NCBI GenBank assembly: GCA_017694295.1
Contig: JADINA010000007.1
Location: 5,754 to 69,753 of the forward strand
DNA length: 64,000 nt
Reading direction: 5' to 3'
Origin: Candidatus Alloenteromonas pullistercoris
Lineage (GTDB): Bacteria > Bacillota_I > Bacilli_A > RFN20 > CAG-826
The translations under genes and the position numbers were made by a program. Below are positions 2-24,944 of the stretch, piece by piece. The notes under the pieces were generated by a model. That model ran no database searches and was not told the origin of the DNA. It saw nothing but the letters and a program-made list of their open reading frames with translations. How positions within the stretch are numbered: the stretch's first letter is position 1; the number at the start of each line of letters is the position of its first letter.

Positions 2-1606
2 TCATGCCGCCCCTCCTTCAAATGACAGGAAAGCCCTCTCGGATTTGGCCTCGAATAGGATGACGGCGGGCACGAATAGGCATAGGCTAAGCCCAAGCAA
101 GAGGATATATGGGGAAATCCCGGAGAAGCCATCGAGGAGGGTGAGCAAAGCCGGGATGCCGGCGAAAAGGAACGGGAGGAGGAAGAAAAGCGATTTGAGG
201 TAGGCCATCTTGCTTTGCCTAAGCCCGGAAAGCCCGGTGAGGGCGGAAAATAGGTAAATCGAGGAAAGGAAGAAGGCGCCGGAAAGCAAAAGGAAGGGGA
301 AGGCGGGCCAAGAGACGTCGCCGAGGATGGAAAGGGAAAGAAGCGAGGCGGCATAGGCTAAAAAGCCCCAGAAAAGGGGAAGGGCGATTTTAGCCCGAAG
401 CTGGGCTTTGGGGGAGATGGGGAAGGTCTTAAGCAAGCTTAGGCGCCTCCCCTCCTTCTCTAGGCTTAGCCCCCCGGCCCCGTTTATGACGAAAAGGAAG
501 AGGAAGATGGTCGCCACCTGGATGAAGAAGCTCCAGCCCGGGAAGAGGTTGGAGATGAAGTTCAGGTTCCCGGTATGGAAGATGACCCCGATGGCGTGGA
601 CGACCGAGACGCTTAGGAAGGGGCTAGCCAAGACGAGGGAAAAGAAGGAAAGGACGCCGTCGCTATTGGAGGAGAGGACGAGGAACTCCTTCGAAAGAAG
701 AGCGTGCATCGGGGAGCGGAGGCCTTTGAAATAGCTTCTTTTCCTTTTTCCCTTGGGCTTCTCCCCCATTATGTAGAAGCGGAAAAAGAAGAAATACAGC
801 AGCGGCGAGAAGAAGGCGAAGCAGGCGATCGGGACGATGGCGCTTAAGCTGAAGAGGTAGAAGGGGTTGGCGATGTGGGCTAGTTTAAGAAACGGGGCGA
901 ACGGATAAAGGGCGTTCCCAATCGCGTTAAGCCTTCCGATGAACTCGGTGGTCAGCGAATAGGAAAGCGAGTTGCCCAAAACCAGATCGATGAAGAGGTT
1001 AAGCAAAAGGGAATACAAATACCCCAAGCCGATCATGAGCAAAAAGGAAAACACCAGCAAAACCCACATATTTTTCTGGATCGCCTTGGAAAGAAACCGA
1101 TATAGCGGCGCGAAAAGGAAGGAAAGGCCGAGGATCAGGAGGGGGAAGATGAAACAGAAAACCCCGCAATAAAGGTAATAAGGGAAATAGGCTTCCGCCA
1201 AGGCCCCATAGCAAATGGCGATGGGGAAGATTAGGAGAAGGACATAGGCGAAAGCGAGGCAATAGAAGAAGGCGGCTTTGGCGAGGAAGACATCGACTGG
1301 CCTAACCGGGACGGGCCCCAATATCCGCCTTTCCCGGGAGTCGAAGAAGGAGGAGGCGACCCGGGGCAAGATGGCAATCGCCCCGGCAAGGGAAAGCAGG
1401 CATAAGAGGATGGCGGTAAGGGAAAGGCTGGCCCCTTGATATGGGGAAAGGAGATTGAAGGCCTCGCGGTAAGCGAAGACCTCGATGCCGACGCATAGGG
1501 CGGCGGAAATCAAAACCAAGACGAGATAAAGCCATTTCGCGGTCCTGCTCCCTTTTGAGAAAATGGGCAAGGAGGAGAATTCGCGGTAAAACAAGACGGT
1601 GATCAT
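2..1606 (-). CDS. ABC-2-type exporter permease (multi-TM); C-terminus truncated by window edge
   Basis: 534-aa ORF of hydrophobic helices; 4-nt overlap (1603..1606) with the ABC ATPase gene upstream indicates translational coupling. Confidence 0.55.
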   Translation of the reverse strand: MITVLFYREFSSLPIFSKGSRTAKWLYLVLVLISAALCVGIEVFAYREAFNLLSPYQGASLSLTAILLCLLSLAGAIAILPRVASSFFDSRERRILGPVPVRPVDVFLAKAAFFYCLAFAYVLLLIFPIAICYGALAEAYFPYYLYCGVFCFIFPLLILGLSFLFAPLYRFLSKAIQKNMWVLLVFSFLLMIGLGYLYSLLLNLFIDLVLGNSLSYSLTTEFIGRLNAIGNALYPFAPFLKLAHIANPFYLFSLSAIVPIACFAFFSPLLYFFFFRFYIMGEKPKGKRKRSYFKGLRSPMHALLSKEFLVLSSNSDGVLSFFSLVLASPFLSVSVVHAIGVIFHTGNLNFISNLFPGWSFFIQVATIFLFLFVINGAGGLSLEKEGRRLSLLKTFPISPKAQLRAKIALPLFWGFLAYAASLLSLSILGDVSWPAFPFLLLSGAFFLSSIYLFSALTGLSGLRQSKMAYLKSLFFLLPFLFAGIPALLTLLDGFSGISPYILLLGLSLCLFVPAVILFEAKSERAFLSFEGGAA

Positions 1607-2370
1607 CTTGGCTTCTCCATCTTCGAAAGCGAAAGGAAATAGGGGGTTACCTCATAACGGAGGGAAGGGTCCTCCCGCAGGTCGAACACCCGGTTGATGA
1701 CCCCGTCGTAGATAATCGCGATGCGGTCGGCGATGGAGGATACCATCTCGATGTTATGCGAGGCGACGAAGACGGTCCGCCCATGCTCGGAGAACTCCTT
1801 CATCATGAGGGTGAGCTCGTGGCTGGTGACGGCGTCTAGCCCCACCGTCGGCTCGTCCATTACCCAAATATGGGGGTTATGGATAAGCGAGGCGATTAGG
1901 CCAAGCTTCTGCTGCATGCCATGGCTATATTCCTTTATCGGGCGGGAAAGGTCCTCGGGGCTTAGGTCAAGCCGCTTGCTTAGGTAATCGAGGTTCTTCT
2001 CGAAAACAGCGTCCTCGACTTTGTAGATCGATCCGATGAACTCAAGGTAGCGGAGGCCCGACATCTGATCATACGAAAGCGGCTCGGAGGGGACGTAGCC
2101 GATAATCTTTTTGGCGGCGATGGCGTCTTCGACGATCGAATGTCCCTCGACGGCTATCTCTCCCTCATCAAAGGTCTTTATGCCGATAAGGGAATCGATG
2201 GTCGTCGATTTGCCAGCCCCGTTGCTGCCGATAAAGGCAAAAAGCTCGCCTTCGCGGACCTCTAGGTCAAGGCCTTTTAGCACCTCATGGGATCCATAGG
2301 ATTTGCGGAGGCCTTTTATGGAGATGGAAACATTCCCTACCATTGGCTTACCTGCCCCGTTATCGTCCAT
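1603..2370 (-). CDS. ABC transporter ATP-binding protein
   Basis: Walker A GSNGAGKST, ABC signature YSHGMQQKLGL, Walker B IWVMDEPTVGLD; true start probably the internal M (MVGNVSI). Confidence 0.9.
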   Translation of the reverse strand: MDDNGAGKPMVGNVSISIKGLRKSYGSHEVLKGLDLEVREGELFAFIGSNGAGKSTTIDSLIGIKTFDEGEIAVEGHSIVEDAIAAKKIIGYVPSEPLSYDQMSGLRYLEFIGSIYKVEDAVFEKNLDYLSKRLDLSPEDLSRPIKEYSHGMQQKLGLIASLIHNPHIWVMDEPTVGLDAVTSHELTLMMKEFSEHGRTVFVASHNIEMVSSIADRIAIIYDGVINRVFDLREDPSLRYEVTPYFLSLSKMEKPR

Positions 2371-4991
2371 CCGGAACTTGAATTATAGCTAACCGACCTG
2401 CAAAGATGGTCATAGTACGTATACACTATGAAGCCGGTGCGAGTCTGAGAATTATTAAAACCGGCAAATTTAAACAATTTAATCGAGGAATCGGAAGCTC
2501 GATAGGGCATAAATCCCCCTTGGTAGAAGGCGTAAGTGGAGCCGTTATAAGTGGCAATATTATTTGAATATGTGACCTGGCGCCACTGCCCGGAAAGCGA
2601 ATTGGTTGTCCCTCCCGACTTGCCATTATAGGAATAATAAACATGCTCAGCCTTCCCGGAGGGGTCATCGTAAATAAAGGCGTAATAGACGTTGTTGCTG
2701 CCGTTTCTGGCATTGATGAGGCCGGTTTTGCGGTCGTAATAGGTGTTTGTTAGGCCGCTTCCGTTTTCCAAAGTCATCCAAATCTCGCCATTGGAAATAA
2801 GCGGGCAGCTATAAAGCGAGGCGACGTTTATCTGATGCATTTCTACGAGTGTACCTAGTTTGGCGGTAGAAGGCCCAGACATAGCCACCGATCCCCAAAG
2901 CTGGACGGAAGAGCCGTTTATATACGAGTCGAAGGCCGACTTGGATGGGAAGTTGATCTCCCCGCCCAAAACGTAGGGAACCGCGTTGCCGGAAGTGAAT
3001 TGGAGTTTTGCATAGCAATCGAAACGGGCCGGTATCTCGGCGTAATAATTCCAAAAACGGCTTCGACTACCCCATGTCCAGGTGCCGTGGCCTTCGTTGC
3101 TGTTGCCATAGGACTTCCTGGTGTCGTACCACCCTTTCCGCTCCTTGGAATCCGGATAAATATCAACGTCATCCGTTTCCTCTGTTATATGTATATTACT
3201 TGCATTCCCGATGTCCGAATTGTAATAGTTTTGGACCAATACCAACCCGGCGGCGCAATTAGTTTTTTGATCATCGGCATAATTCATATAAACGGCATTG
3301 ATGTAATCTCCGATAGACGCGGAACCATGGTCAAAATAAATCGTAGAGGCCGCATCTGCATAAAGATAGCACCCTGGCATGAAGGCGTACTCCTGATGTA
3401 GGCGGATTTTCGAACCGTACGAATAGAAATCGTAATACGGCGGGATCCATTTTTGATAACGGTAGGACGTAATAGATATATCAATACCCAAACCAAAATC
3501 TATATGCATATTGACGGCGAGGGCACATATTTCGATTTCGGCATTGACGAAATAGTATTTTATCTTTTGATAGGTGACGTCCTTATAGGCGCGGTCGTTG
3601 GTCAAAGCTGTGTAATTGGTCCCATGGGCTTTAACGATGGTGTCATAAAGTTCCTTGTTATATTCCATCTTTCGGATGATGGAACCGCTGGAGAGGCGAA
3701 TCCAAGCCGAGGAAGATGGGGACCCGATAATATAAAGATCTGTATAAACGCTTCCTTGGCTTTTGCCAAAGGAGACATATAGCTTCCCATAGAAATTGCA
3801 CCCGGCCTCAAAGACGATTTCGCAATCGAGGTAGGGGCAGCGGAACATCTGCATCCAATCCATGCCCCCGGCGTAAATCTCGGGAATCGAATTCTCGCGC
3901 CACATATCCTCAAAGACGAAAGTCGAATACAAAGTCGCCCCGCTTTTGAGGATGAGGCGGCCATCCCTTTCAGAAGAGGAATCGGTTATCGACCCAAAAG
4001 CATCGATCATCGAACCAGATTCGAGGATGAGGTCATATCCGTTCAGATCCAATTCGGAATAGGGCCCGCAGATGAATCCTTGCGCATTCAGCTGCGTCCA
4101 TTGCAGGTTCATCGAAGTGTCCTCAACGTCTTGCCTTGCAAATCCGGTTAAAGCGCCCAAAGTGAAATTTCCCGACAGAATAACGTCGTTTTGCAGGGTA
4201 AACCGGGCAAAGCAATACTCGCTTTGGTTATTGGCGGCTATCGACCCCCCATTGCTTATATCGGTCCTTTTGCTTAAATCGACTGGCTTGTAGTAATGGT
4301 TGTAAGCCGTATTCGTATTGGCTCCATTCGGATAATCCGCCGGGTGCGTCTCCAAGCCAATTGAGCTTTTGGAATTGGCGAAAGGCCCGTTGGGGACGGA
4401 GGATCCGTTGCGGACCAAATAAGGTTGGGTGCCGTTTTGGTTGCTATGGGCATACCATCTGTCCGAGTTTGTATCCTCCTTATACTGGGCTTGCGTGCCA
4501 GAACTGCTGTTGTAGCAATTGACCAATGGGACCGAGAAATCGATGGCTATGTCGAGCCCGCCGTTGGCATTGCCGATATTGCCGGATCCGCTGGTGTTTA
4601 TCGACGTATTGACCTGCTCCGGGTTTCCCTTTGTATAGGTTTCCAAATACCAATTGTCTAGGGTGACCGACTGAGGGCTTTCAGTCCTAAACGTCAGCTT
4701 CGCCTCCCCAACCGTCACGTGTTTATGGAGGTATTCGCCGGAATCGGATTTCCAAGTATAGAAGGCATTGTTGTATTTGACTCCCGGGGCATCCCCAAGC
4801 GACAAAACGTCGCCGGGGTTGAAATACTCAGTCGTGGTAACCCCGTTGGGGTCGATAAAATCGACTTGGGTCAATCCTTCCTCGCTAAGGTCGGCCTCGC
4901 CGTTTTTCATATCGAGCATCCCGAAAGAGGGGACGGCTAGGCAAAGAAAGGAAACCGCGCCGATTATAAAGGAAGCCGATGCTTTCCTCAT
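2337..4991 (-). CDS. Large secreted Tyr/Asn/Ser/Gly-rich surface protein (884 aa), function unknown
   Basis: N-terminal signal peptide (FIIGAVSFLCLAVPSFG); aromatic/Asn-rich beta-type composition, no recognisable catalytic motif; noticeably lower GC than neighbours. Confidence 0.6.
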   Translation of the reverse strand: MRKASASFIIGAVSFLCLAVPSFGMLDMKNGEADLSEEGLTQVDFIDPNGVTTTEYFNPGDVLSLGDAPGVKYNNAFYTWKSDSGEYLHKHVTVGEAKLTFRTESPQSVTLDNWYLETYTKGNPEQVNTSINTSGSGNIGNANGGLDIAIDFSVPLVNCYNSSSGTQAQYKEDTNSDRWYAHSNQNGTQPYLVRNGSSVPNGPFANSKSSIGLETHPADYPNGANTNTAYNHYYKPVDLSKRTDISNGGSIAANNQSEYCFARFTLQNDVILSGNFTLGALTGFARQDVEDTSMNLQWTQLNAQGFICGPYSELDLNGYDLILESGSMIDAFGSITDSSSERDGRLILKSGATLYSTFVFEDMWRENSIPEIYAGGMDWMQMFRCPYLDCEIVFEAGCNFYGKLYVSFGKSQGSVYTDLYIIGSPSSSAWIRLSSGSIIRKMEYNKELYDTIVKAHGTNYTALTNDRAYKDVTYQKIKYYFVNAEIEICALAVNMHIDFGLGIDISITSYRYQKWIPPYYDFYSYGSKIRLHQEYAFMPGCYLYADAASTIYFDHGSASIGDYINAVYMNYADDQKTNCAAGLVLVQNYYNSDIGNASNIHITEETDDVDIYPDSKERKGWYDTRKSYGNSNEGHGTWTWGSRSRFWNYYAEIPARFDCYAKLQFTSGNAVPYVLGGEINFPSKSAFDSYINGSSVQLWGSVAMSGPSTAKLGTLVEMHQINVASLYSCPLISNGEIWMTLENGSGLTNTYYDRKTGLINARNGSNNVYYAFIYDDPSGKAEHVYYSYNGKSGGTTNSLSGQWRQVTYSNNIATYNGSTYAFYQGGFMPYRASDSSIKLFKFAGFNNSQTRTGFIVYTYYDHLCRSVSYNSSSGWTITGQVSQW

Positions 4992-5623
4992 ATCGCCTCC
5001 TTAAACGAAATGCCAAAGGACGAAAATGACAATCCCGGGTTGGTCGGAGAGCTGACCGGAACCTCGATGGAGCAAGTGAAGTTAAAGGCGTTGATGGTGT
5101 TATTGACCCCCGATTCGCCATATAGGCCCTCGATGCTATCGTGTTCGAAATCGGATGCAAGGTTTTGATCCAAGACGTAATAGGAAATCGCGGCCTGCCC
5201 ATTTGCCGAGGACCGCGAATACGGATTGAAATAGCGGCTCCCTTCGTAATCGGCCAAAAGATAGCAATGGGCGGCATACGCGTCGAAGGTGCCCGAATAG
5301 GCGAAAAGGAAATCGACGGCTTCGAATTCCTTCACCCCGGAGGAGCTATACCAATATTTGCTTATCGATCCGCGGGGGATGGTAAGCGAGGCCGAGGCGA
5401 CGAGGGTATAGCCCCGCGCATCCCTGACTATCCTTTGCGTCGCCGAGTTGATGACGATTATCTCCGGGTCGAAATCGCGGTTTATCGCGACTTCGCCTAG
5501 CCTAACCTGCTCTTTGGCCTCGAAGGCGCCGCTGAGGGAAAGGGCGCCATAGGTCGCGACCGCGCTTGTAAGCGGGAGGCAAAGGGCGAAAGCCATTATG
5601 GAAAGGCGGTTCCCCCACTTCAT
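4988..5623 (-). CDS. Secreted TasA/camelysin-like protein (paralog 2)
   Basis: Signal peptide ending AVATYGALSLSGAFEA, resembling the SipW-dependent TasA N-terminus (GGT[FWY]A.F.D) and the N-terminus of ORF 10534..11181; 4-nt overlaps with both neighbouring genes. Confidence 0.45.
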   Translation of the reverse strand: MKWGNRLSIMAFALCLPLTSAVATYGALSLSGAFEAKEQVRLGEVAINRDFDPEIIVINSATQRIVRDARGYTLVASASLTIPRGSISKYWYSSSGVKEFEAVDFLFAYSGTFDAYAAHCYLLADYEGSRYFNPYSRSSANGQAAISYYVLDQNLASDFEHDSIEGLYGESGVNNTINAFNFTCSIEVPVSSPTNPGLSFSSFGISFKEAI

Positions 5624-6723
5624 GAAGCGTCCTCCGCAAAGCAGGCGTAGGCGGTGAAGTCCTTGGTCACCGGCGTCAAATCAGTGATCTTGGTCGCCGA
5701 AAAGGATTCCTCGCCATAGGGGTTGGTATACCATCCGAGGAAAGTCGACCCCTCCTTCTCGGCCCGAGGCAAAACCGGAAGCGGGCTTCCGGCCTTAACC
5801 CGCTGGGTTGGGCTGAAGGAGGCGGGCACGACGATGCGGCCCCCGTTGGTCTCGGCGTCGAATTTGACGGTGTAATACACCGCTTCGCCCATGGCGAACT
5901 GCAAAACCCAGGCGCCGTCATCATAACGCCAAACGGCCCCGTTGAGGGAATCGAAGTAGAAATCGCCCTCCTTGGCCTCGCGGATGTTGTAGGGATCGCC
6001 GGAATTGGTGAACCACTTGGTCCCGTCCTCAACTTGGGGAAGCGGGAAGGTGAGGGTCTGCGGCTCATCGGTTTGGGTGAAATGGATTATGAGGTAGTAG
6101 TTTTCCTCATCGGAGAAGCTTTCGATGTAGGCGATGCCATTGCCGTCTTTCCCGCTTTGGGAGGGAAGGCGGATCTCGGTGTTGGGGACGGATTCGTCGG
6201 TGTATTCGATGGTGATGAGGACATCCCCGTTTTCCAGGGTTTCCTGCGACACCGAGGCAATTCCGTTGCCGTCTTTCCCCTTTGGCAAATCGAAGGTATG
6301 GTCCTCCCCGTCGTTGGTCGAGATGGTGACGGTCGTCATCCCGGTTTCGGGGTCGTAGGCGCTTTCGATGTCCTCGATCGAGGTGGCGTTTGGGATACTC
6401 CAGACCGAGGGCTCAAGCGAGGCGTCGGTGTAGGTCATGGTGATGATGAGGCTGCTCCCGTCCTCGCTTAGAACCGAATCGACCGAAGCGATGCCGGTCC
6501 CCATCGGGCCCTGCTCGCCCGTCTCCCCTTGGGGGACGTAGAAGACGACGGGGGGTATGTCCTCGTCGGTGAAGGTGATGGTGACCTTGGTTGAGCCATC
6601 TGGCTGCTCTTCGGCCAAAACCGATTCGATGAAAAGCGATTCCTCGCTGCCAAGGAGCATGTTGCAGGAGGATAGGGCGAAAAGCCCGGCGGCCCCCAAA
6701 AGAAGTTTCCTAAGCAGCTTCAT
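5620..6723 (-). CDS. Lipoprotein with collagen-like G-x-x triplet repeats and C-terminal Listeria-Bacteroides (Flg_new) repeat
   Basis: Start moved to in-frame ATG at 6723 (MKLLRKLLLGAAGLFALSSC lipobox) with AAAGGAGA RBS; three ~40-aa repeats (GETGEQGPMGTGIASV / GKDGNGIASV / GKDGNGIAYI); C-terminal YTVKFDAETNGG...GSTFLGWYTNPYGEE...FTAYACF. Confidence 0.6.
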   Translation of the reverse strand: MKLLRKLLLGAAGLFALSSCNMLLGSEESLFIESVLAEEQPDGSTKVTITFTDEDIPPVVFYVPQGETGEQGPMGTGIASVDSVLSEDGSSLIITMTYTDASLEPSVWSIPNATSIEDIESAYDPETGMTTVTISTNDGEDHTFDLPKGKDGNGIASVSQETLENGDVLITIEYTDESVPNTEIRLPSQSGKDGNGIAYIESFSDEENYYLIIHFTQTDEPQTLTFPLPQVEDGTKWFTNSGDPYNIREAKEGDFYFDSLNGAVWRYDDGAWVLQFAMGEAVYYTVKFDAETNGGRIVVPASFSPTQRVKAGSPLPVLPRAEKEGSTFLGWYTNPYGEESFSATKITDLTPVTKDFTAYACFAEDAS

Positions 6724-7831
6724 AGCCATTCTCCTTTCCCCTGAACGGGAGGTCGTAAACCCAAAGGAACCGCTCGCCGTTGCGGTCGTATTCGCCAAAG
6801 AGGGCACCGCATTCGTGACAGCGCCCACCTTCGCGGAGCCCGCCGCAGATCGGGCAATAACGCGGATAGGCGGGGAGAGTAAGGAAAAGCAACTTCAGGG
6901 GCAACGAGGAGTCGATGGCCCCAAAAAGCGAGGCGCTTGCCTTTTTCCCGTCTTCGGAAAGCAATTCGTAACGCGGGTAGAAGAAAGAGGGCCGAGGCAA
7001 AAGGAAATACGACTTAGAAGAGGAATCGAAGGCGTTTTCCCCCTTAACGAGGAGCCCCTCGCCTTTTTTCTCGATGACGATGGAGAAATCCGAATAGGCA
7101 AAGCGGATCCCCGATTTCGTCTTGCTTGGCCGCCTGCCGGAGGAGAAATCGCCGACGATCCTATTCAAATCGGCTTCGGGGTTATAGGAACGGCGGGAGG
7201 AGGCATAAGCCTTATAAAGCGTCCCATAGAGGGGATCGTAGGCCAAGGCGTTGGTCAGATGGACGTCTTGCTCCCTTATCGGCTCTACCGAAAGGAAGAA
7301 GCCGGTTTGCAGCAACCCGGAGGCTTCGGCTCTAAGCGAAAGCAGCTCCTCGAGCATGGAAAGCTTTTCCCTTTGCTTGCCCCGATAGGCGTCTTCGGCG
7401 TAATCGATGATCGGGAGGGCGTTACCGAATTTGGAATAGTCAAGCCCCTCCCCAAGTATCGGGAGGAGCGAGGAATCGCGCCTAAAGGCGGAAGAGGCGG
7501 CGTTAAGCTCGGCGAAAAGCTCGGTTAGGATGAATTTGGCGAAGCGGTTCTCGTAGGTCGAGAAATCGTCCTCGACCTCCGGGCAAAGCACCTCTTTGGG
7601 GGTAAGCCTCCCGTTTAGGTAGCCGAAATGCTTGCTCTTCCTCGCCGTCAAAGCGAAAAGTCGCCTTGAGAAGGAGGAGGCTTGGCTAAGCTTGCGGAGG
7701 GTCTCCTCCTGCCTTAAGCCCTTCCTGGAGAAGCGGACGATGTTCTCAAGGCAATCCAAAATGACGCGGCATGAGGAAGGCGAGGGGGCGAGGGCCCGTT
7801 CGCGGGTATAGGAGGCGAAAGAGAGGCTCAT
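6710..7831 (-). CDS. Cytoplasmic protein with C-terminal zinc ribbon (CPICG...CHECG); candidate partner/effector of the upstream AAA ATPase
   Basis: 373-aa ORF, 4-nt overlap with the ATPase gene; CxxC...CxxC ribbon; a D...E.K-like stretch (SDFSIVIEKK) could be a PD-(D/E)xK nuclease motif but is unverified. Confidence 0.5.
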   Translation of the reverse strand: MSLSFASYTRERALAPSPSSCRVILDCLENIVRFSRKGLRQEETLRKLSQASSFSRRLFALTARKSKHFGYLNGRLTPKEVLCPEVEDDFSTYENRFAKFILTELFAELNAASSAFRRDSSLLPILGEGLDYSKFGNALPIIDYAEDAYRGKQREKLSMLEELLSLRAEASGLLQTGFFLSVEPIREQDVHLTNALAYDPLYGTLYKAYASSRRSYNPEADLNRIVGDFSSGRRPSKTKSGIRFAYSDFSIVIEKKGEGLLVKGENAFDSSSKSYFLLPRPSFFYPRYELLSEDGKKASASLFGAIDSSLPLKLLFLTLPAYPRYCPICGGLREGGRCHECGALFGEYDRNGERFLWVYDLPFRGKENGYEAA

Positions 7832-9609
7832 CCAAGCCTCCTTATCTCGTAATCGATGGAGGAAAGGCTCCTCTTGAAGGAGTCACCATAGGTCTTCTTT
7901 ATATAGCTGGAAAGCTCATGGAGCCCGCCCCGATAGGAGGCGTCGACCCTTCCTTTGGCCTTGCGGAGGACCTTGAAGGCGAATAGGTAATCGAGGGCCC
8001 CCTCCTTCTCGCCGGTCATGGCGGCGTAGCAGGGGGTAAGGTCCTTGGCTTGGTTGAGGAAGCGGTTGCCGGTTTTCACGTCAAGCAGTTCCCCGGCTTT
8101 CCTAAGCAAGTCGGAAAGCTTCTTCATCTCGGCGGAGGAAAGGGAAAGCTTCCTGTCCTTCCTCGCCTCAAGGGCCAATGAATTGAGCTCTTGGTAGGAA
8201 AGGGGCGTTGGCTTGGCCTTGGTTTCGAATTCGATGGGCTCATGGAATTCGTCGAAGTCGAGAACGACCGCCCTATCGATGACCTTGTCGGTGATGGCGA
8301 AGGTCGAGTCGTCGGTGTTGGCGGTCCCGACGAAGCGGGTATTCGGGGTTAAGGCGAGATCGCCCTCGCCTAGGTGGGCCGGAGCCTCGCCGGGGATGTT
8401 ATAAAGGTGGATCTTCCTTTCGCCCTCGGGGAACTCAAGCACCGAGAGGAAGTCGGCGAAATAGTACTCGATGCGGGAGATGTTCATCTCGTCGAGGACC
8501 ATGATGTTGAGGTGGCTTAGCCGGTACGTCGACTCGTAAAGCCGCTTAAGGAACTCGGTCTCGGAGTAAACCCCGGTGAAGTCGTTGTAATAGCCCAGGA
8601 TATCATCGCGGTCCTTATAGGTCATCTGGACGGATTCGAAATAGGCCGTCTCGCCGATGAATTTGGCGAAGTAGCGCGGCAAGCTCGATTTGCCAGTGCC
8701 CGAAACGCCCTCGAGGATGGTGATCGGGGCGGTGAGCAAGGAGGATGCGAACATCGCGAGGTCCTCAAGCGAATAGTAAAGCGAGCAGCTGGTGGCTAGG
8801 TAGTTTTGCAGCTCGGCTACGATCCTCTTTAGGCTAAGGTCTTGCTTGGGCAAGGCGAGGCTTTGCTCGCCAAGGACGAAGCGCGAATCGATTTTGCTTA
8901 GCTCGGGGAACACCCTTTCCCGGTCATAGGATACCGGGGCGGACGCGCCCCCGGAAACAAGGGCCCCGCCGATGGCAACGGTTCCACCCTCCCCCTTCTT
9001 CGAATCGAAGGAGGCGGTGACGTCGTCCTCGCTTGGATCCTTTTTCTCCTCCGTTTCCTCGCCCTTTGGGGCGGCGGCCCCGGAGGCGGGGAGGCTGGGC
9101 CTAGAGGCGAAGGGGAGGGAGAGGATAAGCAAATAGATGGCGAAGACGATGGCGTAGATGCAGGCGAAAGCCAAAAGGCTGATAAGCAGCGACTGCCCGA
9201 CGAATTGGAGGTGGAGGGCAACCCCCTCGGCCCCGTTGGGGATGGAGAAAAGCATGCCGACGCCGATGAAGACGATGAACCCGGCCACCCCGATTAGGAT
9301 CATGTAAAGGAGCAACCCGGAGTCGCGGAGCGTCTTCCCGTCCTCCTTCACCTTGTTGATGACGGCGAAAAGGGCGATCGACCCGGCGATGAGGTAAAGT
9401 CCGAGGAAAAGGAGGATGATGTATCCCCCGATGGCCGGCTCGATCTTCGGGAAGCCAAACAGCTCCCCGATGGAAGCGATGATGTTGTTCTTGTTGAAGA
9501 CGACGTAGCTCGCGTCGAGCCCGCCGGCGACGAAGAAGCTTAGCAAAACGAAGAAAATAACCGAGGCCACGATGGCCTTTTGCCTTGGCGAGAAACGCAA
9601 TATCCTCAT
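7828..9609 (-). CDS. Membrane-anchored McrB/AAA_5-family ATPase (GTPase-like)
   Basis: Four N-terminal TM helices, acidic linker, then Walker A GVSGTGKSS, Walker B MVLDEMN, and NTRFVGTANTDD...VIDRAVVLDF typical of the McrB/dynein-related AAA_5 family. Confidence 0.7.
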   Translation of the reverse strand: MRILRFSPRQKAIVASVIFFVLLSFFVAGGLDASYVVFNKNNIIASIGELFGFPKIEPAIGGYIILLFLGLYLIAGSIALFAVINKVKEDGKTLRDSGLLLYMILIGVAGFIVFIGVGMLFSIPNGAEGVALHLQFVGQSLLISLLAFACIYAIVFAIYLLILSLPFASRPSLPASGAAAPKGEETEEKKDPSEDDVTASFDSKKGEGGTVAIGGALVSGGASAPVSYDRERVFPELSKIDSRFVLGEQSLALPKQDLSLKRIVAELQNYLATSCSLYYSLEDLAMFASSLLTAPITILEGVSGTGKSSLPRYFAKFIGETAYFESVQMTYKDRDDILGYYNDFTGVYSETEFLKRLYESTYRLSHLNIMVLDEMNISRIEYYFADFLSVLEFPEGERKIHLYNIPGEAPAHLGEGDLALTPNTRFVGTANTDDSTFAITDKVIDRAVVLDFDEFHEPIEFETKAKPTPLSYQELNSLALEARKDRKLSLSSAEMKKLSDLLRKAGELLDVKTGNRFLNQAKDLTPCYAAMTGEKEGALDYLFAFKVLRKAKGRVDASYRGGLHELSSYIKKTYGDSFKRSLSSIDYEIRRLG

Positions 9610-9622: not shown

Positions 9623-10513
9623 TTACTTGCGATAGCTTATGTCTATTTTATCGGACTTGACCTTTTTGTCGACGGTCCCGACGTAGGATGAATCGAATCT
9701 GATGGTGCCTTCCGGGCAGCTGTAGATGACTTCTTTCGCCCCTTTGGCGAAAAGCCCGTCATAGGCTTTCAGCCTTTCCTCCTTCCGCTTGTCGGAGAGG
9801 CCGAAATATATCTCGGCCGCGATGATGCAATAGGCCAGCGAGGACATCCCGAGTATCCCGTAGTCGTCTTGGAGGTAGATGGTTATCGAGCCAAGCACCG
9901 GTATCCTTATCCCGGCGTAGCGGCCGTTGACCATCTCCAGGGTGACGCGGACGTTGTCCGGGGTCGAGTTGGCGTCGCCTTGGGTGAGGAGAGAGCCGTC
10001 GTCGTAGAAGCCGACGACCCGGTGGATGACGTTTATGCCCTCGGGATGGGCGTAGCTCACGATGTCGTAAAGCTTGATGGCCTCTAGGGAATCGACCCTT
10101 TCGATGACGACGATGTCGTCGACCTGCAGCCTTTCATCGTGCCCTTGCAGCTCCTGCGCCCTTTCCGGGGCGAGAGTGGACATCGACGGGGTCAAGACGA
10201 CTCCCAGCGAATAAGGGATCCCCAAGCCCGGCATTGCGCGCGTGAAGATCAAAACCGCGCACACGCCAAGCACCAAGAAGAAGAAGCAGTTGCCCAAAAT
10301 GGCTGCCGCTTTGCGGGCCCCGCGGGCCTTTTTCGAGCGCGAGCAGCTCACCACCTTCTCCTCAAGTATCTCGAAATCGAGCTTCCCCTCGCCCGTTTCC
10401 TTCTTGTCGACGCGAAGCATCCAAATCAAGAAGGCGGTGAGGGCGAGGAGAAGGACGATGACCGATACCAGGACGATGGTGAAGACGATTGAAAGGCAAA
10501 CCGGGAAAGCCAT
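9623..10513 (-). CDS. sipW: SipW-type (ER/archaeal-type) signal peptidase I with extra N-terminal TM and C-terminal extension
   Basis: Box B LTPSMSTL (Ser nucleophile), box C VDDIVVIE, box D NVIHRVVG (His rather than Lys), box E TQGDANSTPD; 296 aa versus ~190 aa for B. subtilis SipW. Confidence 0.7.
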   Translation of the reverse strand: MAFPVCLSIVFTIVLVSVIVLLLALTAFLIWMLRVDKKETGEGKLDFEILEEKVVSCSRSKKARGARKAAAILGNCFFFLVLGVCAVLIFTRAMPGLGIPYSLGVVLTPSMSTLAPERAQELQGHDERLQVDDIVVIERVDSLEAIKLYDIVSYAHPEGINVIHRVVGFYDDGSLLTQGDANSTPDNVRVTLEMVNGRYAGIRIPVLGSITIYLQDDYGILGMSSLAYCIIAAEIYFGLSDKRKEERLKAYDGLFAKGAKEVIYSCPEGTIRFDSSYVGTVDKKVKSDKIDISYRK

Positions 10514-10533: not shown

Positions 10534-11181
10534 TTAGGCGCCGGCTCCCGAGGCTAGCTGAACCGTGACGGTGCAGGTGATGGTCGTGGAGTTGATGGCG
10601 GTTTGGAAAGCTTCCATCGCATCCCAGGCGCCGTTCCCATCGGGATAGGTGGTGTTGACCCACTTGAGGAAGCCGCCTTGATATTTCGAAGCCCACTCAA
10701 GGGTGATGGGGAGGGTGCAGGTCTTGACGGTGTCGACGCCCTCGCCCTCGCCTTCTTGCGCCCAAGCGGGATCAAGGCTTTCTTTCGCGACGGTGATGGT
10801 TTTGTTAGAAAGAGTCAGATAGGTCTCGTCGCTGATCTTGACGGTGACGGTGACGCTGGCCCAGGATTCGGGATTTCCGGTGACGGAAAGGCCAAGGGAG
10901 AACGTGCGGTCGTTTTTCGCGTCGCCATCGACCTGGCCAATATTGTTGTCGGTCAGGTCCTCGTATCCATCGACATCAAGGACACCTTCTTTGACGGAGG
11001 CGGCGAGGTTAACGACGTTGTTCTGGATGACGACGTCGCTGATGTTGATGCCGTCATTCACGTCTTGCGTCTTGTTCCCGCCGGAGAGGGTGAGGGCGGC
11101 GTAGGTGCCGCCGATCGTCGCAACCGCGCCTAGGACTAGTGCGCTGGTGACGACGAGCTTTATTTTGCTTGTTTTGGTCAT
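10534..11181 (-). CDS. Secreted TasA/camelysin-like protein (paralog 1)
   Basis: Start re-assigned to ATG at 11181 (MTKTSKIKLVVTSALVLGAVATIGGTYAALTLSGG) with GGAGG RBS 8 nt upstream; N-terminus matches the TasA/camelysin signal (GGTFAYFSD-like); lies directly upstream of the SipW-like gene as in tapA-sipW-tasA. Confidence 0.55.
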   Translation of the reverse strand: MTKTSKIKLVVTSALVLGAVATIGGTYAALTLSGGNKTQDVNDGINISDVVIQNNVVNLAASVKEGVLDVDGYEDLTDNNIGQVDGDAKNDRTFSLGLSVTGNPESWASVTVTVKISDETYLTLSNKTITVAKESLDPAWAQEGEGEGVDTVKTCTLPITLEWASKYQGGFLKWVNTTYPDGNGAWDAMEAFQTAINSTTITCTVTVQLASGAGA

Positions 11182-11498: not shown

Positions 11499-12458
11499 AT
11501 GGATAGGATTTCTTCGCCCTACCGGGCCTCATTCTCCACATCCAACGCGGTGGTCATGGCCTTGACCTCGCTTGCCTTCAAAGCCGGGCGCCTTTCCTCT
11601 TTGGCTTATAAACAAGACATTGACGAAGCCTCCTTGGAGGAATCCAAGGCGTATTTGAGGTCGGTCGGCGTGAAGCTCACGCCCTCCCAGGCCCGCGGCC
11701 TAGGGTTAGGGGAAAACGTGAAATCCGCCCCGATCGCCAAGCCGACGACAGAGCTTTTCAAAGCCGTCAACAGGCAAGGGCCATTGGGGAAGGAGTTCGT
11801 CGAACGCTTTGCCAAAATTCTTTGGGGGGAAGACGTGCCGGTTAGGCTATCCCGCCGGGTCAAGGGCTTCGATTACCCGATCCCGCCCCACGCCAAGGTG
11901 GACGGCCTCCTTGACAAGACCTTTGCCTTCCTCGCCCAGGCCGATGGCAAGGTAAGCCCCCTACTTCTTTCCGGGCTTTGCCTATACATGGTGATGGCGA
12001 TCATGCCCTTTAGCGAGCATACCCTTCTTCTCGCGATACTTTTCGCCAAGGGTGAGCTCATCAGCTTCCGGCGGGAGTTCGTCGGAGTCAATCTGACCAA
12101 GCACCTTTTGGAAAACGAACAGACCCTATCCGAGGCTTACGCGAAAGCAAACGAGAAAAGCGACATGGCCCCCTACCTCATCGCCTATATGGGCGTGGTC
12201 GAGGAGGCGATCGAGGAGGCGATCCGCCGAGGTGTGAGCAAACGGGGCGGTCTCACCCCGATGGCCAAACGGATGGTCGAGTTAATGGAGGATGGCCGCT
12301 ACTACAGCGCCGCCGAGCTGCTTGGCATTTTGGGGTTGAAGTCGAGGCTCGGTTTGCAGAAGAATTACCTTCAGCCGGCCTTAAAGGCCCGGCTCATCGA
12401 GATGAGCAACCCGCTCTCCCCCACCGACAGGAACCAGCGTTACCGCCTCAAGAAATAG
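11499..12458 (+). CDS. Fic/DOC-family-like protein with degenerate active-site motif and C-terminal wHTH
   Basis: Fic-like helical core with MPFSEHTLLLA in place of canonical HPFx(D/E)GNGR; C-terminal SAAELLGILGLKSR...RYRLKK typical of Fic-associated winged helix. Confidence 0.45.
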   Translation: MDRISSPYRASFSTSNAVVMALTSLAFKAGRLSSLAYKQDIDEASLEESKAYLRSVGVKLTPSQARGLGLGENVKSAPIAKPTTELFKAVNRQGPLGKEFVERFAKILWGEDVPVRLSRRVKGFDYPIPPHAKVDGLLDKTFAFLAQADGKVSPLLLSGLCLYMVMAIMPFSEHTLLLAILFAKGELISFRREFVGVNLTKHLLENEQTLSEAYAKANEKSDMAPYLIAYMGVVEEAIEEAIRRGVSKRGGLTPMAKRMVELMEDGRYYSAAELLGILGLKSRLGLQKNYLQPALKARLIEMSNPLSPTDRNQRYRLKK

Positions 12459-15318: not shown

Positions 15319-16482
15319 TTACCTGGAAACGAAGATGGGCGAAATCCCGTTTATGGCCTCCTCGATCATCTTCTCATAATCGAAAAGCGCTTCATAACGG
15401 AGGCAATGGGCCAAATCGGGTTTGGTCTTGGGGTGGCGCGGCTTGAAGATGGTGCAGCAATCCTCAAACGGGCGGATGGAGATGTCGAAGGTTCCGATTT
15501 CCTTGGCCTTGTCGATGACGTCGACTTTGTCACTCACGCATAATGGGCGCAGGAAAGGGAAGGAGGTGACCTCGTTGATGACCTGCATCGACTCAAGGGT
15601 CTGCGAGGCGACTTGCCCGATCGATTCGCCGCTGGCGATGGCCAATGACCCCCTGGAGGCGGCAAGTTTCGCCGCGATGCGGACCATCATGCGGCGCATT
15701 ATGGTGATGCAATATGGCTCGGGGACGTGCTCGTAAATCGCCTCCTGGATCTTGGTGAAGGGGACGACGTCGAGGCGGATGTCGCTTTGATAGGGGGTCA
15801 ATAGATAAAGGATGTCCTTAAGCTTATCGATGACGGCTTCGCTGGTATACGGGGGTGAGGCGAAATGGACGCATTCGATCTTGATGCCGCGCCGAAGCAG
15901 GCTATAGGCGGCGACCGGGGAATCGATCCCCCCGCTTAATAGCATCGTCGCCTTGCCGATGCTCCCTAGCGGATACCCGCCTAATCCCTTTATCGAGCCG
16001 GTGGAAAGATAGCAGCAGCCCTCCCTCACCTGGACTCGCAATGTTAGCTCAGGATGGTGGAGGTCGACGGATAGTCCCTTCCCTTCCTTTAACGCCCTAT
16101 CGGCGATCAGGCGGCAAACCCCATAGGAATCAAGCGGATATCCCTTATCGGCCCTACTGGCCTCGACCTTGAAGGTCTTTTTGCCGGAATCGAGGATAAG
16201 CTTGGCTCCGAATTCGGCAAGCTCCTCGACGTCCTTCCCGCATTCATAGCCCGGGGATATCTTGATGATGCCGGGGACGCAAAGGAGGCGTTTGACGGCC
16301 TCCTCGCCCTCTTTTTGCCCGTTGAGTTTGACGTATATGTGGTCCCTTCTTCCGTTTACCTCGACCGAAAGCCCGGAAAGGGCCCTTTTGACGTTGCGGG
16401 TCAAAATGGAGATGAACTCCCTTCTGTTGTTGCCTTTCGTCGAAAGCTCGCCATAGTGGATAAGCAGGTAATCGCAGTTCAT
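15319..16482 (-). CDS. thiI: tRNA 4-thiouridine synthase / sulfurtransferase ThiI
   Basis: Start re-assigned to ATG 16482 (MNCDYLLIHYGELSTKGNNR, THUMP N-terminus) with AGGAGG RBS; PP-loop SGGIDSPVAA. Confidence 0.85.
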   Translation of the reverse strand: MNCDYLLIHYGELSTKGNNRREFISILTRNVKRALSGLSVEVNGRRDHIYVKLNGQKEGEEAVKRLLCVPGIIKISPGYECGKDVEELAEFGAKLILDSGKKTFKVEASRADKGYPLDSYGVCRLIADRALKEGKGLSVDLHHPELTLRVQVREGCCYLSTGSIKGLGGYPLGSIGKATMLLSGGIDSPVAAYSLLRRGIKIECVHFASPPYTSEAVIDKLKDILYLLTPYQSDIRLDVVPFTKIQEAIYEHVPEPYCITIMRRMMVRIAAKLAASRGSLAIASGESIGQVASQTLESMQVINEVTSFPFLRPLCVSDKVDVIDKAKEIGTFDISIRPFEDCCTIFKPRHPKTKPDLAHCLRYEALFDYEKMIEEAINGISPIFVSR

Positions 16483-17609
16483 AATGGCCTGACCTCCTTG
16501 AATAAAACCGTTAACGCCTCCAATAGCCCATCGACCTCCTCGGGGGTGGAGAAGGCGGAGAAGGAGACGCGGATCGGGTTGGCGCATTCCCTTTCCTCCC
16601 GCCCCATCGCCTTCAAGACGTAGGAGGAATTTTCCCTTTTCGAGGAGCAGGCCGAGACGGAGGAGACGCAATAGCCCATGTTCGAAAGCCCCTCGACGAT
16701 GACCGAGGCCTTGTGGCGGAGGGTGGAGAAGGAAAGGATGAAGGGGGATTGTCGGGGGGATTCGTGTAGCTTTACTAGCCCGGTAAAGGCAGTTAGTCCT
16801 TCCTTAAGGCGGGCGTAAAGCAATGTGGCCCTCTCCTTTGCCGCCTCCTGTTCCTTAACCGATAGCTCAAGGGCGACGGCAAGGGCGGAAGCGGAGGCCA
16901 CGTCGACCGTCCCGGCCCGTAGGCCCAACTCCTGCTCGCCACCATCGATAAGCGGCTTGATCCTAAGCCCTTTGCGGATAACCAAGGCCCCAACTCCCTT
17001 GGGAGCCCCGATTTTATGTCCGGAAAAGGAGATGAAATCGGCTTTTGAGTAATCGAAATCCTCTTTGCCGACGGCTTGGGTGGCGTCGACTAAAAGCAAG
17101 GTCTTCGGGTTATCGCGGCGAAGCGAATAAAACGCATCCAAATCGGAGATGGCCCCGGTTTCGTTGTTGACGGCCATAACGGCGCATAGAATGGCGCCGC
17201 TTATCATCTTTCCGGCCTCCATCGGATCGGGGGCCCCATCGCGGAGGGGAATGGGGAGGGCGGATATCCCAAGGCGGGAAAGAGAGGCGCAGGATTCGAT
17301 GACCGAAGGGTGCTCGCCAGCCCCGTAGATTACCTTGTCGCCGCGGCTATTGAAGGCAAGAGACGTCCCCTTGATGGCGAGGTTGTTGGCCTCGCTGGCC
17401 CCGCTTAGGAAAAGGCAATCGTGCGTTTTGGTTAGCTTAAGGGAGGAAAGGACGCTTTCCCTTGCCTTTGCCAAAACGCGGGCCGCCTTATACCCGGCTT
17501 CGTGGATCGAGGATGGGTTGCCCCAGGATTGGGAATTGACTTCCAGATAGGCCTCAAGGGCCTCTTTCCTTATGAAGCAGGTGGCGGCGAAATCGAGGTA
17601 GGCTTTCAT
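16479..17609 (-). CDS. Cysteine desulfurase (NifS/IscS class V aminotransferase; NifZ-like, paired with ThiI)
   Basis: PLP-lysine motif SFSGHKIGAPKGVGALVIRKG; 4-nt overlap with thiI as in the B. subtilis nifZ-thiI operon. Confidence 0.85.
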   Translation of the reverse strand: MKAYLDFAATCFIRKEALEAYLEVNSQSWGNPSSIHEAGYKAARVLAKARESVLSSLKLTKTHDCLFLSGASEANNLAIKGTSLAFNSRGDKVIYGAGEHPSVIESCASLSRLGISALPIPLRDGAPDPMEAGKMISGAILCAVMAVNNETGAISDLDAFYSLRRDNPKTLLLVDATQAVGKEDFDYSKADFISFSGHKIGAPKGVGALVIRKGLRIKPLIDGGEQELGLRAGTVDVASASALAVALELSVKEQEAAKERATLLYARLKEGLTAFTGLVKLHESPRQSPFILSFSTLRHKASVIVEGLSNMGYCVSSVSACSSKRENSSYVLKAMGREERECANPIRVSFSAFSTPEEVDGLLEALTVLFKEVRPL

Positions 17610-23639: not shown

Positions 23640-24944
23640 TTGTTGATTATGGAAAGCAAACCAAAGGCGAAAAACAGGCGGGCCAAGCAGCTGCCACGCG
23701 CGATTGAGCTATTTGCCGGAGTAGGCGGCTTTCGGGTCGGCTTAAACCGCATTCGCTCCCTTGAGAACACGCTAAGAGAGAGAGAGAGAGAGAGATTTAA
23801 TTTCGTCTTCGCCAACCAATTTGAGCCGTCGACCAAAAGGCAAGACGCCTTCATCTGCTACCAAACCCATTTCCCCGACGGCGAGAACTCAAACCTCGAC
23901 ATCGCCAAAGTCGACAAAGCGTCAATCCCCGATTTCGACTTGCTGACGGCCGGCTTCCCCTGCCAAGACTATTCGGTCGCCAGAAGCCTGGCCAACGAGA
24001 AAGGAATCGAGGGGAAGAAAGGCGTCCTTTGGTGGGAGATAAACGATATCCTGCTGACCAAGAAGCCGAAGTTCGCCCTTTTGGAAAACGTCGACCGCCT
24101 CATTAAGGCCCCCTCTAAGCAAAGGGGCCGCGATTTCGGAATTATCCTCCATTGCCTAAACCAAGCCGGATACGGGGTTTTGTATAAGGTGATCAACGCC
24201 GCCGATTACGGTTTCCCTCAAAGGAGGCGTCGCGTTTACATATTCGCCTTCCGCCTCGACACCGCCTATGGGAAAAAGATGTCCTCGATTCCGGCTAAGC
24301 AAGCCATCGAGGAAAAGGGGATATTCGGCAAGAAGTTCCCAATAAAGCCCGAAGGGAAACTCAAGGAAGCTGACTTGACTGCCTATGGTGGTCTATTGGC
24401 TTTGCAAGAGGGGTTCGCGTTTCGCTTCGAGGATGCGGGGATGATGGCAAATGGCCATATATATACGGAAAAGACGACGCCGATTCAGGAAAAGCCGATT
24501 GCCCTTGGGGAGATTCTCGAAGACCTCGTTGATGACCAAAGTCTTTTCCTAAACGAAAGGCAAATCAGAAAATTCGCTTACCTTAAAGGGGCAAAGAAAA
24601 TAAGGCGAAAGGCGAAAAACGGTCATGAATACGTCTATTCGGAAGGGCCGATCGCCAACCCGGACTACCTCGACCGCCCATCGCGGACGATGCTGACAAG
24701 CGAAGGGACCATAAACCGCTCAACCCACGTCGTCCTCGATAAGCAGACGGGAAGGCCCCGCTTGCTTAGCCCGCGGGAATGCGAACGGCTCAACACCTTC
24801 CCCGACGACTGGACCGCGACCATGCCGAAAAATCGCCGCTACTTCATGATGGGCAACGCTTTGGTATGCGGGCTTATAGAGAGAATCGGCGATGAGATAG
24901 AGCTCATTTTCAAGGAGGAGGGGAAAGATGGAACGGGGGATTGA
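23640..24944 (+). CDS. DNA (cytosine-5)-methyltransferase (type II R-M M subunit)
   Basis: Motif I FAGVGGF, motif IV GFPCQDYS, motif VI ENV, motif X-like MGNALV; contains an in-frame (AG)10 tract. Confidence 0.85.
   Translation: MLIMESKPKAKNRRAKQLPRAIELFAGVGGFRVGLNRIRSLENTLRERERERFNFVFANQFEPSTKRQDAFICYQTHFPDGENSNLDIAKVDKASIPDFDLLTAGFPCQDYSVARSLANEKGIEGKKGVLWWEINDILLTKKPKFALLENVDRLIKAPSKQRGRDFGIILHCLNQAGYGVLYKVINAADYGFPQRRRRVYIFAFRLDTAYGKKMSSIPAKQAIEEKGIFGKKFPIKPEGKLKEADLTAYGGLLALQEGFAFRFEDAGMMANGHIYTEKTTPIQEKPIALGEILEDLVDDQSLFLNERQIRKFAYLKGAKKIRRKAKNGHEYVYSEGPIANPDYLDRPSRTMLTSEGTINRSTHVVLDKQTGRPRLLSPRECERLNTFPDDWTATMPKNRRYFMMGNALVCGLIERIGDEIELIFKEEGKDGTGD
23775..23795. repeat. (AG)10A dinucleotide simple-sequence repeat inside the C5-methyltransferase ORF
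   Basis: agagagagagagagagagaga read in frame as RERERER between MTase motifs I and IV. Confidence 0.9.

Follow-up and report, generated by a model that had tools for sequence, protein, structure and literature searches.

A membrane-anchored McrB-like NTPase and its nuclease-free DUF2357 partner in a conserved signal peptidase and ABC transporter operon of uncultured gut Bacilli

What does a motor of the McrB family do when it is anchored in the membrane, has no DNA-binding domain, and is coupled to a partner that has no nuclease? The question is raised by two adjoining minus-strand genes in a 64,000-nucleotide stretch of the Candidatus Alloenteromonas pullistercoris genome (contig JADINA010000007.1, positions 5,754 to 69,753 of the forward strand), which we refer to as the window and in whose numbering all coordinates are given. 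The upstream gene (7828..9609) encodes a membrane-anchored, McrB-like AAA+ nucleoside triphosphatase (NTPase) of 593 amino acids (aa), here called the ATPase. The downstream gene (6710..7831) encodes a McrC-like partner of 373 aa that carries a DUF2357 domain and a four-cysteine (C4) zinc ribbon. Both genes are real: the ATPase has a defined membrane topology and intact NTPase motifs, the pair is homologous to McrB and to DUF2357 proteins, the partner has no nuclease, and the operon that surrounds the two is conserved. We consider it probable, though well short of certain, that the pair is an exapted, nuclease-free McrBC-type NTPase module that serves a secretion or surface operon. A restriction-enzyme engine, in other words, seems to have been reused for envelope work.

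The ATPase and its place in the McrB family

The two reading frames share the stop/start overlap ATGA (ggATGAgc, 7828..7831, minus strand), as read directly from the DNA. The partner's ATG is preceded at a distance of 8 nt by AGGAGG, and the ATPase gene has a Shine-Dalgarno sequence of its own, AAGGAG. From its N-terminus, the ATPase consists of a transmembrane (TM) domain (aa 1-167, nt 9109-9609), a disordered acidic linker (aa 168-228, nt 8926-9108), and an NTPase module predicted to be cytoplasmic (aa 229-593, nt 7831-8925). The translation contains the Walker A motif GVSGTGKSS, the Walker B motif MVLDEMN, and the stretch NTRFVGTANTDD...VIDRAVVLDF. Full-length homologues of the ATPase number more than 3,452, each about 600 aa long. 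Walker A (G301-S309) and the Walker B residues D373, E374, and N376 are invariant in 28 aligned homologues. The signature N431-T-D433-D434 and R446 of VIDRA, at the arginine-finger position, are each conserved in at least 90% of homologues, and the GNR motif of the lid (residues 514-516) is invariant or at least 90% conserved.

We asked whether this module belongs with McrB, as a first-pass annotation of the window had proposed, or with the MoxR ATPases. Pfam gives generic AAA_5 alone, below the gathering score, and a phmmer search of PDB sequences with the single ATPase sequence yielded as its best real match the McrB of T. gammatolerans, at E 0.5. A full-length profile searched against PDB sequences returned only transmembrane and low-complexity noise (enterotoxin H, G-protein-coupled receptors) and was set aside; hhalign was run on the trimmed cytoplasmic module in its place. 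The family profile of that module matched E. coli McrB (EcMcrB) at 89.6% (E 1.9e-6) over 164 columns, which span the whole AAA core, versus 5.6% over 83 columns for the E. coli MoxR protein RavA. Identity to EcMcrB is only ~21%, and the alignment is gap-free at NTDD/NTAD and at R446/R348, with the Walker motifs falling on GPPGVGKT and IIDEIN of EcMcrB. The arginine finger and signature residues to which the first-pass annotation had drawn attention (R446, N431, D433/D434) are thus conserved and align with those of McrB.

Comparison by fold was less selective than comparison by profile. The AlphaFold2 (AF2) model of the ATPase, built from a 28-sequence input, has a mean predicted local distance difference test score (pLDDT) of 80.9, and a Foldseek search with it confirms an AAA+ clade-7 fold. 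In that search MoxR (2r44, E 8.4e-6), MCM, and NorQ rank above McrB (6ut3, E 1e-3), and CbbQ and RavA are likewise ahead of McrB. Because MoxR is ranked above McrB, fold alone cannot separate McrB from MoxR, MCM, or dynein. The ranking and the generic Pfam assignment are the grounds on which one might take the ATPase for a MoxR-type chaperone that matures or inserts a membrane or secreted complex, with its neighbour as an unrelated adaptor. We regard this as very improbable, because the profile comparison favours McrB and the partner is a DUF2357 protein. MoxR ATPases are accompanied by a VWA protein, and no VWA domain was found in the operon. The N-x-D-D signature and the DEMN of Walker B, moreover, align with both McrB and CnuB, a McrB-type protein discussed below. 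Judged by profile, then, the ATPase is best classified as McrB-like rather than MoxR-like.

Searching for relatives within the McrB family by tblastn, we found 34-37% identity over aa ~230-593 to genes for ~790-aa proteins labelled 'AAA family ATPase' on Rhodoferax and Deinococcus plasmids. Each of these genes is followed by a DUF2357 gene and lies near a large AAA/helicase-like gene and a hypothetical gene. This context looks like that of CoCoNuT (CnuB/CnuC), the derivatives of McrBC in the NxD branch that are predicted to target RNA (Bell et al., PMC11090510). In a joint alignment, the signature reads GTANTDDST in the window, GTANHDETT in the CnuB-like proteins, and GLMNTADRS in EcMcrB. In the NxD branch, as defined by Bell et al. 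(eLife 2024, PMC11090510), E or another D usually comes after the motif. The window ATPase appears to fit the description of this branch, which comprises CoCoNuT and CoCoPALM, with the reservation that NxD and NxxD are not strictly separable by alignment because both Asp residues are present.

The first-pass annotation had described an N-terminus of four TM helices and an acidic linker in place of a DNA-binding domain, and this description holds. No DNA-binding domain was found at the N-terminus of the ATPase; the four-TM domain and the linker take the place of the specificity or coiled-coil domain that is usual there. Hydropathy and AF2 agree on four helices, which the model places at residues 8-31, 60-89, 100-120, and 123-164. 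Linker residues 168-225 are disordered in the model (pLDDT <50), the folded alpha/beta and lid module begins at about residue 230, and no coiled coil is present in the modelled protein. The orientation was predicted from the mean number of Lys and Arg residues per segment in 28 homologues. The mean is 3.6 at the N-terminus, 3.2 in loop 2, and 3.7 in the segment after TM4, versus 2.1 in the 29 residues of loop 1 and 0.7 in loop 3. Because these values place loop 2 and both the N-terminal and the post-TM4 segments on the inner side, the ATPase is predicted to have an N-in/C-in topology and a cytoplasmic AAA+ domain, which agrees with the expectation set beforehand.

Outside the AAA module, D32 and N42 (predicted outer loop 1) and G116 (TM3) are near-invariant, and so is F201, which lies in a D-L-x-x-S-F motif inside the otherwise variable disordered linker. 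All four residues are kept across homologues that are only 36-67% identical. Their conservation suggests specific contacts outside the AAA module, and because D32 and N42 at the outer face are near-invariant, the TM domain is probably more than a generic anchor.

The DUF2357 and zinc-ribbon partner

The partner carries a DUF2357 region at aa 28-116 (nt 7484-7750, minus strand) that includes a YENRF motif and scores 30.4 bits against Pfam PF09823, for which the gathering score is 23.3. The same domain is matched by 25 of 34 partners from related loci, with a best E of 3e-13. Together with the ATGA overlap, these matches support the earlier proposal that the gene occupies the McrC position. In McrBC, DUF2357 is the N-terminal domain of McrC, which plugs the pore of the hexamer and stimulates hydrolysis. 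The partner family comprises 1,121 representatives at 50% clustering (E <= 1e-3). The AF2 model of the partner (pLDDT 73.4) contains a beta-finger (aa 38-89), a region of long helices (aa 93-230), a six-strand beta meander (aa 236-292), and the zinc ribbon (aa 318-360), whose ligands are C326, C329, C338, and C341 (nt 6809-6856, minus strand).

Conservation in the partner is concentrated in three short stretches: YENRF (Y93-E94-N95-R96-F97), PTNIL (with T193-N194), and CPxC...CxxC. In alignments of 34 to 126 partners, strict invariance is limited to E94, N95, and the cysteines of the zinc ribbon, with N194 and the proline of the ribbon also invariant or close to it. The ribbon itself, noted as CPICG...CHECG in the first-pass annotation, is present as described, and a C-terminal CxxC...CxxC recurs in every complete downstream open reading frame (ORF) among 83 loci, the sole exception being one that ends at a contig edge. 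It shows weak matches to TFIIB, A2L, and other nucleic-acid-associated ribbon families.

The suggestion of a PD-(D/E)xK nuclease in the partner did not survive. It had been prompted by SDFSIVIEKK, which does occur in the translation as a candidate D..E.K stretch; this candidate sits in the most variable region of the alignment, and we rejected it. No conserved D..(D/E)xK is present among either 34 or 126 aligned partners, none of the family members scanned has a nuclease domain in Pfam, and fold searches with the partner found no nuclease. The comparison with McrC and with nucleases came out unevenly: the DUF2357 match is positive, the structural match to the E. coli McrC (EcMcrC) chains is weak, and the nuclease is absent. 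We conclude from these searches that the partner is probably McrC-like in its N-terminal, McrB-engaging part and devoid of a nuclease.

Some members of the partner family are much longer, at 600-1,100 aa (P0246, P0238, P0212, P0213), with long extensions after the ribbon in which no domain or nuclease is recognisable. One long member is fused to a GNAT acetyltransferase.

The surrounding operon and its conservation

The first-pass annotation had treated the pair as a stand-alone, restriction-like module. Examination of the flanking sequence showed instead that it is embedded in an operon that also encodes a signal peptidase, an ABC exporter, and secreted proteins. At least nine minus-strand genes belong to this translationally coupled operon, of which the ATPase and its partner are the third and fourth, and the successive intergenic distances are 20, 13, -4, -20, -4, -4, -34, and -4 nt. 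The first gene (10534..11181, within an ORF that extends to 11289) encodes a small secreted protein of ~215 aa from its likely start, MTKTSK, with a signal peptide that ends GGTYAALTLSG. The second (9623..10513), 13 nt upstream of the ATPase gene, encodes a SipW/ER-type signal peptidase I of 296 aa with two N-terminal TM helices, which matches the NCBIfam models sigpep_I_arch (E 3.4e-11) and SipW (E 1.2e-10). An orthologue from a related locus (L037) scores above the NCBIfam curated cut-off for signal peptidase I. Residues S110, H164, D180, and D186 are invariant in all 76 homologues of the peptidase, which is thus predicted to be catalytically intact.

Downstream of the pair, also on the minus strand, lie genes for a 369-aa lipoprotein (5620..6729) with the lipobox LSSC and a C-terminal Listeria-Bacteroides repeat (Pfam Flg_new, E 1.5e-9); a 211-aa secreted protein (4988..5623) that resembles the product of the operon's first gene and whose signal peptide ends ATYGALSLSG; and an 884-aa protein, secreted or anchored in the membrane, in which no domain is recognised (2337..4991). 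These are followed by a 255-aa ABC-2/DrrA-type transporter ATPase (1603..2370; Pfam ABC_tran E 2.4e-23, NCBIfam drrA E 3.7e-50, GldA E 1.5e-43) and its putative permease partner of 534 aa (2..1606), for which hydropathy predicts ~12 TM helices. The operon runs past the left edge of the window; in one related locus (L001) the next gene encodes 833 aa. A scan for promoters and terminators returned fewer matches than expected at random and is for that reason uninformative on the operon boundaries, and tRNA and Rfam scans gave no match. Divergent from the operon's first gene is a gene with a Fic-like_C domain (11499-12458, plus strand), a neighbour that is kept in L001 and L002.

To follow the operon across genomes, we took loci with a relative of the ATPase from a one-genome-per-species collection. 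At least 558 loci encode such a relative, and 85 loci were surveyed for the other components by phmmer over all of their ORFs. The ATPase was found in all 85 loci, the ABC ATPase in 80, the SipW-type peptidase in 78, the permease in 72, the lipoprotein in 69, and the partner in 60 by sequence; by position, a partner was located in 83. Homologues of the 884-aa protein are present in 19 loci, and the 211-aa secreted protein was found by sequence only in close loci of the window type (type 1). Contigs in which identity to the window ATPase falls to 57% and 39% have the block as well, and it is fixed across loci down to 33% identity.

Among uncultured gut Bacilli (RF39, Acholeplasmatales, and 'Mollicutes'-like bacteria), several hundred species conserve the operon block. 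Its carriers are labelled as uncultured Mollicutes, Acholeplasmatales, Anaeroplasmataceae, Bacilli, Ca. Onthovivens, Ca. Enteromonas, Ca. Scatosoma, and Staphylococcus sp. CAG:324, and some metagenome-assembled genomes (MAGs) that carry it are labelled Clostridia. Two gene orders occur. The window type runs small protein, SipW, AAA, partner, lipoprotein, and, further on, ABC and permease; the commoner type runs small proteins, SipW, AAA, partner, ABC, permease, a ~820-aa protein, and lipoprotein. One MAG, ERR321628-bin.40, carries both (L035 and L055), its partner being 375 aa long in type 1 and 476 aa long in type 2, so if the binning is correct the two orders may be paralogous systems and not rearranged orthologues.

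In 67 loci, a small secreted protein of 200-330 aa is encoded directly upstream of SipW, and these proteins share an N-terminal pattern: a basic N-terminus, a hydrophobic stretch, GF(A/S)(A/S)W(I/V) or G(A/G)T(F/Y)(A/G)A(L/I), and then GN(I/V)xVGxVxD. Loci L001-L081 have 2-4 paralogues each. No match to Pfam, NCBIfam, or PDB was obtained for these proteins (32 proteins against Pfam; a profile against PDB sequences), and we accordingly dropped the identifications as TasA or as pilins that we had considered. One of the small proteins weakly matches a phage tail-tube model (E 7e-4).

These proteins, with the zinc ribbon, bear on the possibility that the pair is a membrane nucleic-acid translocase for the uptake or export of DNA or RNA, in which the motor would pull, the ribbon would bind, and the small proteins would form a pseudopilus-like conduit. 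McrB is a DNA-translocating motor, the universally conserved ribbon has the weak similarities to nucleic-acid-associated ribbons given above, and the N-termini of the small proteins are hydrophobic. Zinc ribbons, however, serve just as commonly in protein interactions, and the small proteins are without the prepilin G/FxxxE motif. The operon furthermore has no DNA-binding domain, ComEC-like channel, or prepilin peptidase, its peptidase being of the SipW type and not of the PilD type. We give this possibility little credence.

The genomic setting bears most directly on a role in anti-phage defence or abortive infection, in which a McrBC-like sensor, perhaps acting through the zinc ribbon, would trigger the four-TM domain as a membrane-disrupting effector. 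The pair is of McrBC ancestry, its closest soluble relatives are CoCoNuT-like plasmid systems, and in the NxD branch another effector is known to stand in for a lost nuclease (Bell et al., PMC11090510). In addition, the AAA module matches the PADLOC model PDC-M26A at E 8e-36, a local match of aa 259-404 to positions 298-442 of a 724-position profile. No other operon protein matches PADLOC, however, the multi-gene PDC-M26 candidate is not complete, and a literature search found no paper on PDC-M26. The pair was never found alone, being fixed together with SipW, secreted proteins, and the ABC exporter over the whole range of identities surveyed. Its neighbours are housekeeping genes (infC-rpmI-rplT, ezrA, cysteine desulfurase, tyrS, groEL, leuS, priA) and not a variable island, and among the several hundred species of this one lineage the identity of the ATPase tracks the relatedness of the carriers. 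Nuclease-less McrC homologues are described as always adjoining HEPN or other nucleases (Bell et al., PMC11090510), and no such nuclease is detectable in any gene of this operon. A phage collection gave two weak partial matches only, and we therefore see no phage link for the pair. The defence-like genes of the window lie elsewhere, at 23.6-30.7 kb. Because the envelope context is fixed throughout the lineage and the flanks are housekeeping genes, we consider a defence role unlikely. The case also calls for caution in defence annotation, since here the AAA module matches a PADLOC candidate model while the context argues against defence.

The region just mentioned (23640-30734, plus strand) is likely a real defence island. 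It contains a C5 cytosine methyltransferase (23640-24944; PADLOC MTase_II, E 5.5e-157), a 409-aa unknown protein, a fusion of PLD and SNF2 helicase domains (26741-29413; PbeA-like N-terminus, E 3.5e-54; Pfam PLDc_2, SNF2-rel_dom, and Helicase_C), and a double-zinc-ribbon protein (29325-30734), all on the plus strand. Between 24 and 30 kb the GC content falls to ~0.51, with a strong AT skew. We also considered an overlapping gene pair at 16479-19324 (minus strand; 572 and 376 aa) as a duplicate of the ATPase and its partner; the two are EzrA and a class-V aminotransferase (cysteine desulfurase) and are unrelated.

A proposed role and its relation to known systems

The exaptation of a nuclease-free McrBC-type module for secretion or surface work can be put in mechanistic terms. 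From their homology with McrBC we infer that the two proteins form a complex that hydrolyses NTP, and from the operon that this complex acts in envelope or filament biogenesis. Six ATPase subunits would assemble as a ring on the inner side of the membrane, surmounted by a collar of 24 TM helices. The DUF2357 finger of the partner would enter the pore of the ring and, by analogy with McrBC, trigger NTP hydrolysis through the Asn/Asp signature. The asymmetry that hydrolysis creates could then pass via the linker and the TM domain, whose outer-face residues are conserved, to extracytoplasmic or membrane partners: SipW, the membrane-anchored substrates of SipW, or the ABC exporter. The conformational cycle would in this way drive or gate the steps by which the surface proteins of the operon are exported, released, processed, or polymerised and assembled. 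As for the zinc ribbon of the partner, it may dock another component of the operon, or possibly bind nucleic acid.

Several observations weigh against this proposal. The fold ranking described above places MoxR and MCM proteins ahead of McrB. The partner's fold matches to EcMcrC chains are weak (probability 0.51-0.66, E 0.08-0.26), and hhalign found no similarity between the partner profile and EcMcrC; we do not count this failed alignment against McrC-like status, because EcMcrC belongs to a Pfam family different from DUF2357. The PDC-M26A match lends a defence role some standing. No homology to the TasA/CalY subunits (Peptidase_M73) was found in the 32 small proteins searched against Pfam or in the profile search against PDB sequences, and the word 'filament' is a guess, because it rests on the association with SipW and on the N-terminal motif. 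The published definition of CoCoPALM, to which we return below, does not describe the window ATPase.

A bolder form of the proposal, which we hold only tentatively and rate as the less probable side of an open choice, is that the operon encodes a machine, previously unrecognised, with which monoderm gut Bacilli secrete proteins or assemble surface filaments, with the McrBC-derived membrane hexamer as its energy source or gate. In such a machine, the DUF2357/zinc-ribbon protein would be the trigger of hydrolysis, SipW would process the subunits, and the ABC-2 transporter would co-operate.

Such a machine would put a McrB-type NTPase to a categorically new use, one that lies outside nucleic-acid conflict. 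The textbook example of a restriction motor driven by GTP is McrBC. In the window pair the NTPase and its activating partner are kept, with catalytic motifs intact, while a conserved membrane domain and a zinc ribbon take the place of the DNA-binding and nuclease parts. The locus is a concrete, sequence-defined case in which exaptation of the McrBC motor to protein export or surface-structure assembly can be tested. The idea of such exaptation has been raised only in passing, via the CoCoPALM name (Bell et al., PMC11090510). In gut bacteria of the RF39- and Acholeplasmatales-like kind, the operon also amounts to ~10 kb of conserved machinery for the cell surface that is entirely uncharacterised.

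Comparison with the systems that have been characterised places the pair more precisely. With McrBC of E. coli and T. gammatolerans (PDB 6hz4, 6ut3-6ut8) it shares the AAA+ Walker A and B motifs, the sensor-1 Asn/Asp, and the arginine finger, all aligned without gaps, as well as an overlapping downstream partner gene with a McrC-N-type domain. Unlike McrBC, it is membrane-anchored and has neither an N-terminal DNA-binding domain nor a PD-(D/E)xK nuclease. Because the nuclease, the DNA-binding domain, and an island context were each looked for and each found to be absent, the pair is most likely not a type IV restriction system. From the MoxR systems it is set apart by its partner, a DUF2357 protein and not a VWA protein.

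The operon has a different likeness to the SipW-dependent operons for the TasA, BsaA, and CalY matrix fibres of Bacillota, in which small secreted proteins likewise come together with a SipW-type peptidase; here the small proteins lead and the peptidase follows. The sipW-bsaA operon is described in PMC11580942, where McrB is mentioned only as part of a strain genotype. Where cleavage of the signal peptides is presumed to occur, the window's small proteins share the conserved motif G-T-Y-A-A-L. It resembles the SipW-cognate signal of TasA and CalY, which in TasA reads G-T-W-A-A-F. Unlike the TasA-type operons, the window operon has small proteins without detectable TasA or camelysin homology and a conserved NTPase and ABC transporter; TasA-type fibres are not known to need either of the latter.

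CoCoNuT provides the closest soluble relatives of the NTPase, which share with it an FPxL...D N-terminal element and a GNRxxxQ lid. In CoCoNuT, too, the McrC homologue is often without an active nuclease (PMC11090510). Unlike CoCoNuT, the window pair lacks a long coiled coil and is accompanied by neither a nuclease, of the HEPN or another kind, nor a helicase; it does not lie on a plasmid or in an island but is membrane-anchored and encoded inside an envelope operon.

The nearest counterpart is CoCoPALM, a membrane-linked McrBC class associated with signal peptidases that was named by Bell et al. in 2024 (PMC11090510). The first-pass annotation had called a membrane-anchored McrBC-like pair unusual; the membrane anchor is upheld, and because this class had already been named, the claim of rarity is only partly true. 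CoCoPALM is treated in a single paragraph, with details deferred to a forthcoming paper, as an NxD GTPase fused to an FtsB-like TM helix and coiled coil, usually with coiled coils on both proteins (Bell et al., PMC11090510). A literature search found no follow-up paper on CoCoPALM. The window pair is like this class in its NxD-type motor, the membrane-spanning N-terminal fusion, the DUF2357 partner, and the adjoining signal-peptidase gene.

A related locus, L085, encodes an ATPase of 501 aa with one TM helix and a short coiled coil, which matches the published architecture of the CoCoPALM GTPase. It is 34% identical to the window ATPase over the cytoplasmic module (E 3e-61). Its partner (361 aa, DUF2357) has the YENRF and TNVIL motifs, is cysteine-free, and has no zinc ribbon. 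The system to which this pair belongs (L085:5417-13191) also includes a PrsA-like rotamase and a TM coiled-coil protein of 528 aa, and it lies directly upstream of genes for a penicillin-binding protein, MraY, and FtsW, and the Joint Genome Institute name for its DUF2357 cluster is 'peptidase S26B, signal peptidase'.

Unlike the CoCoPALM GTPase, the window ATPase has a four-TM bundle and an acidic linker, not a single FtsB-like TM helix and a coiled coil. The C4 zinc ribbon that is universally conserved on its partner likewise departs from the CoCoPALM description, as do the SipW-type peptidase, which keeps its catalytic residues, and the ABC-2 exporter, lipoprotein, and large secreted proteins of the conserved block. 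Neither the four-TM domain nor the zinc-ribbon partner appears in the published description of CoCoPALM. On present evidence the window pair is best filed as a putative four-TM, zinc-ribbon variant of the CoCoPALM class.

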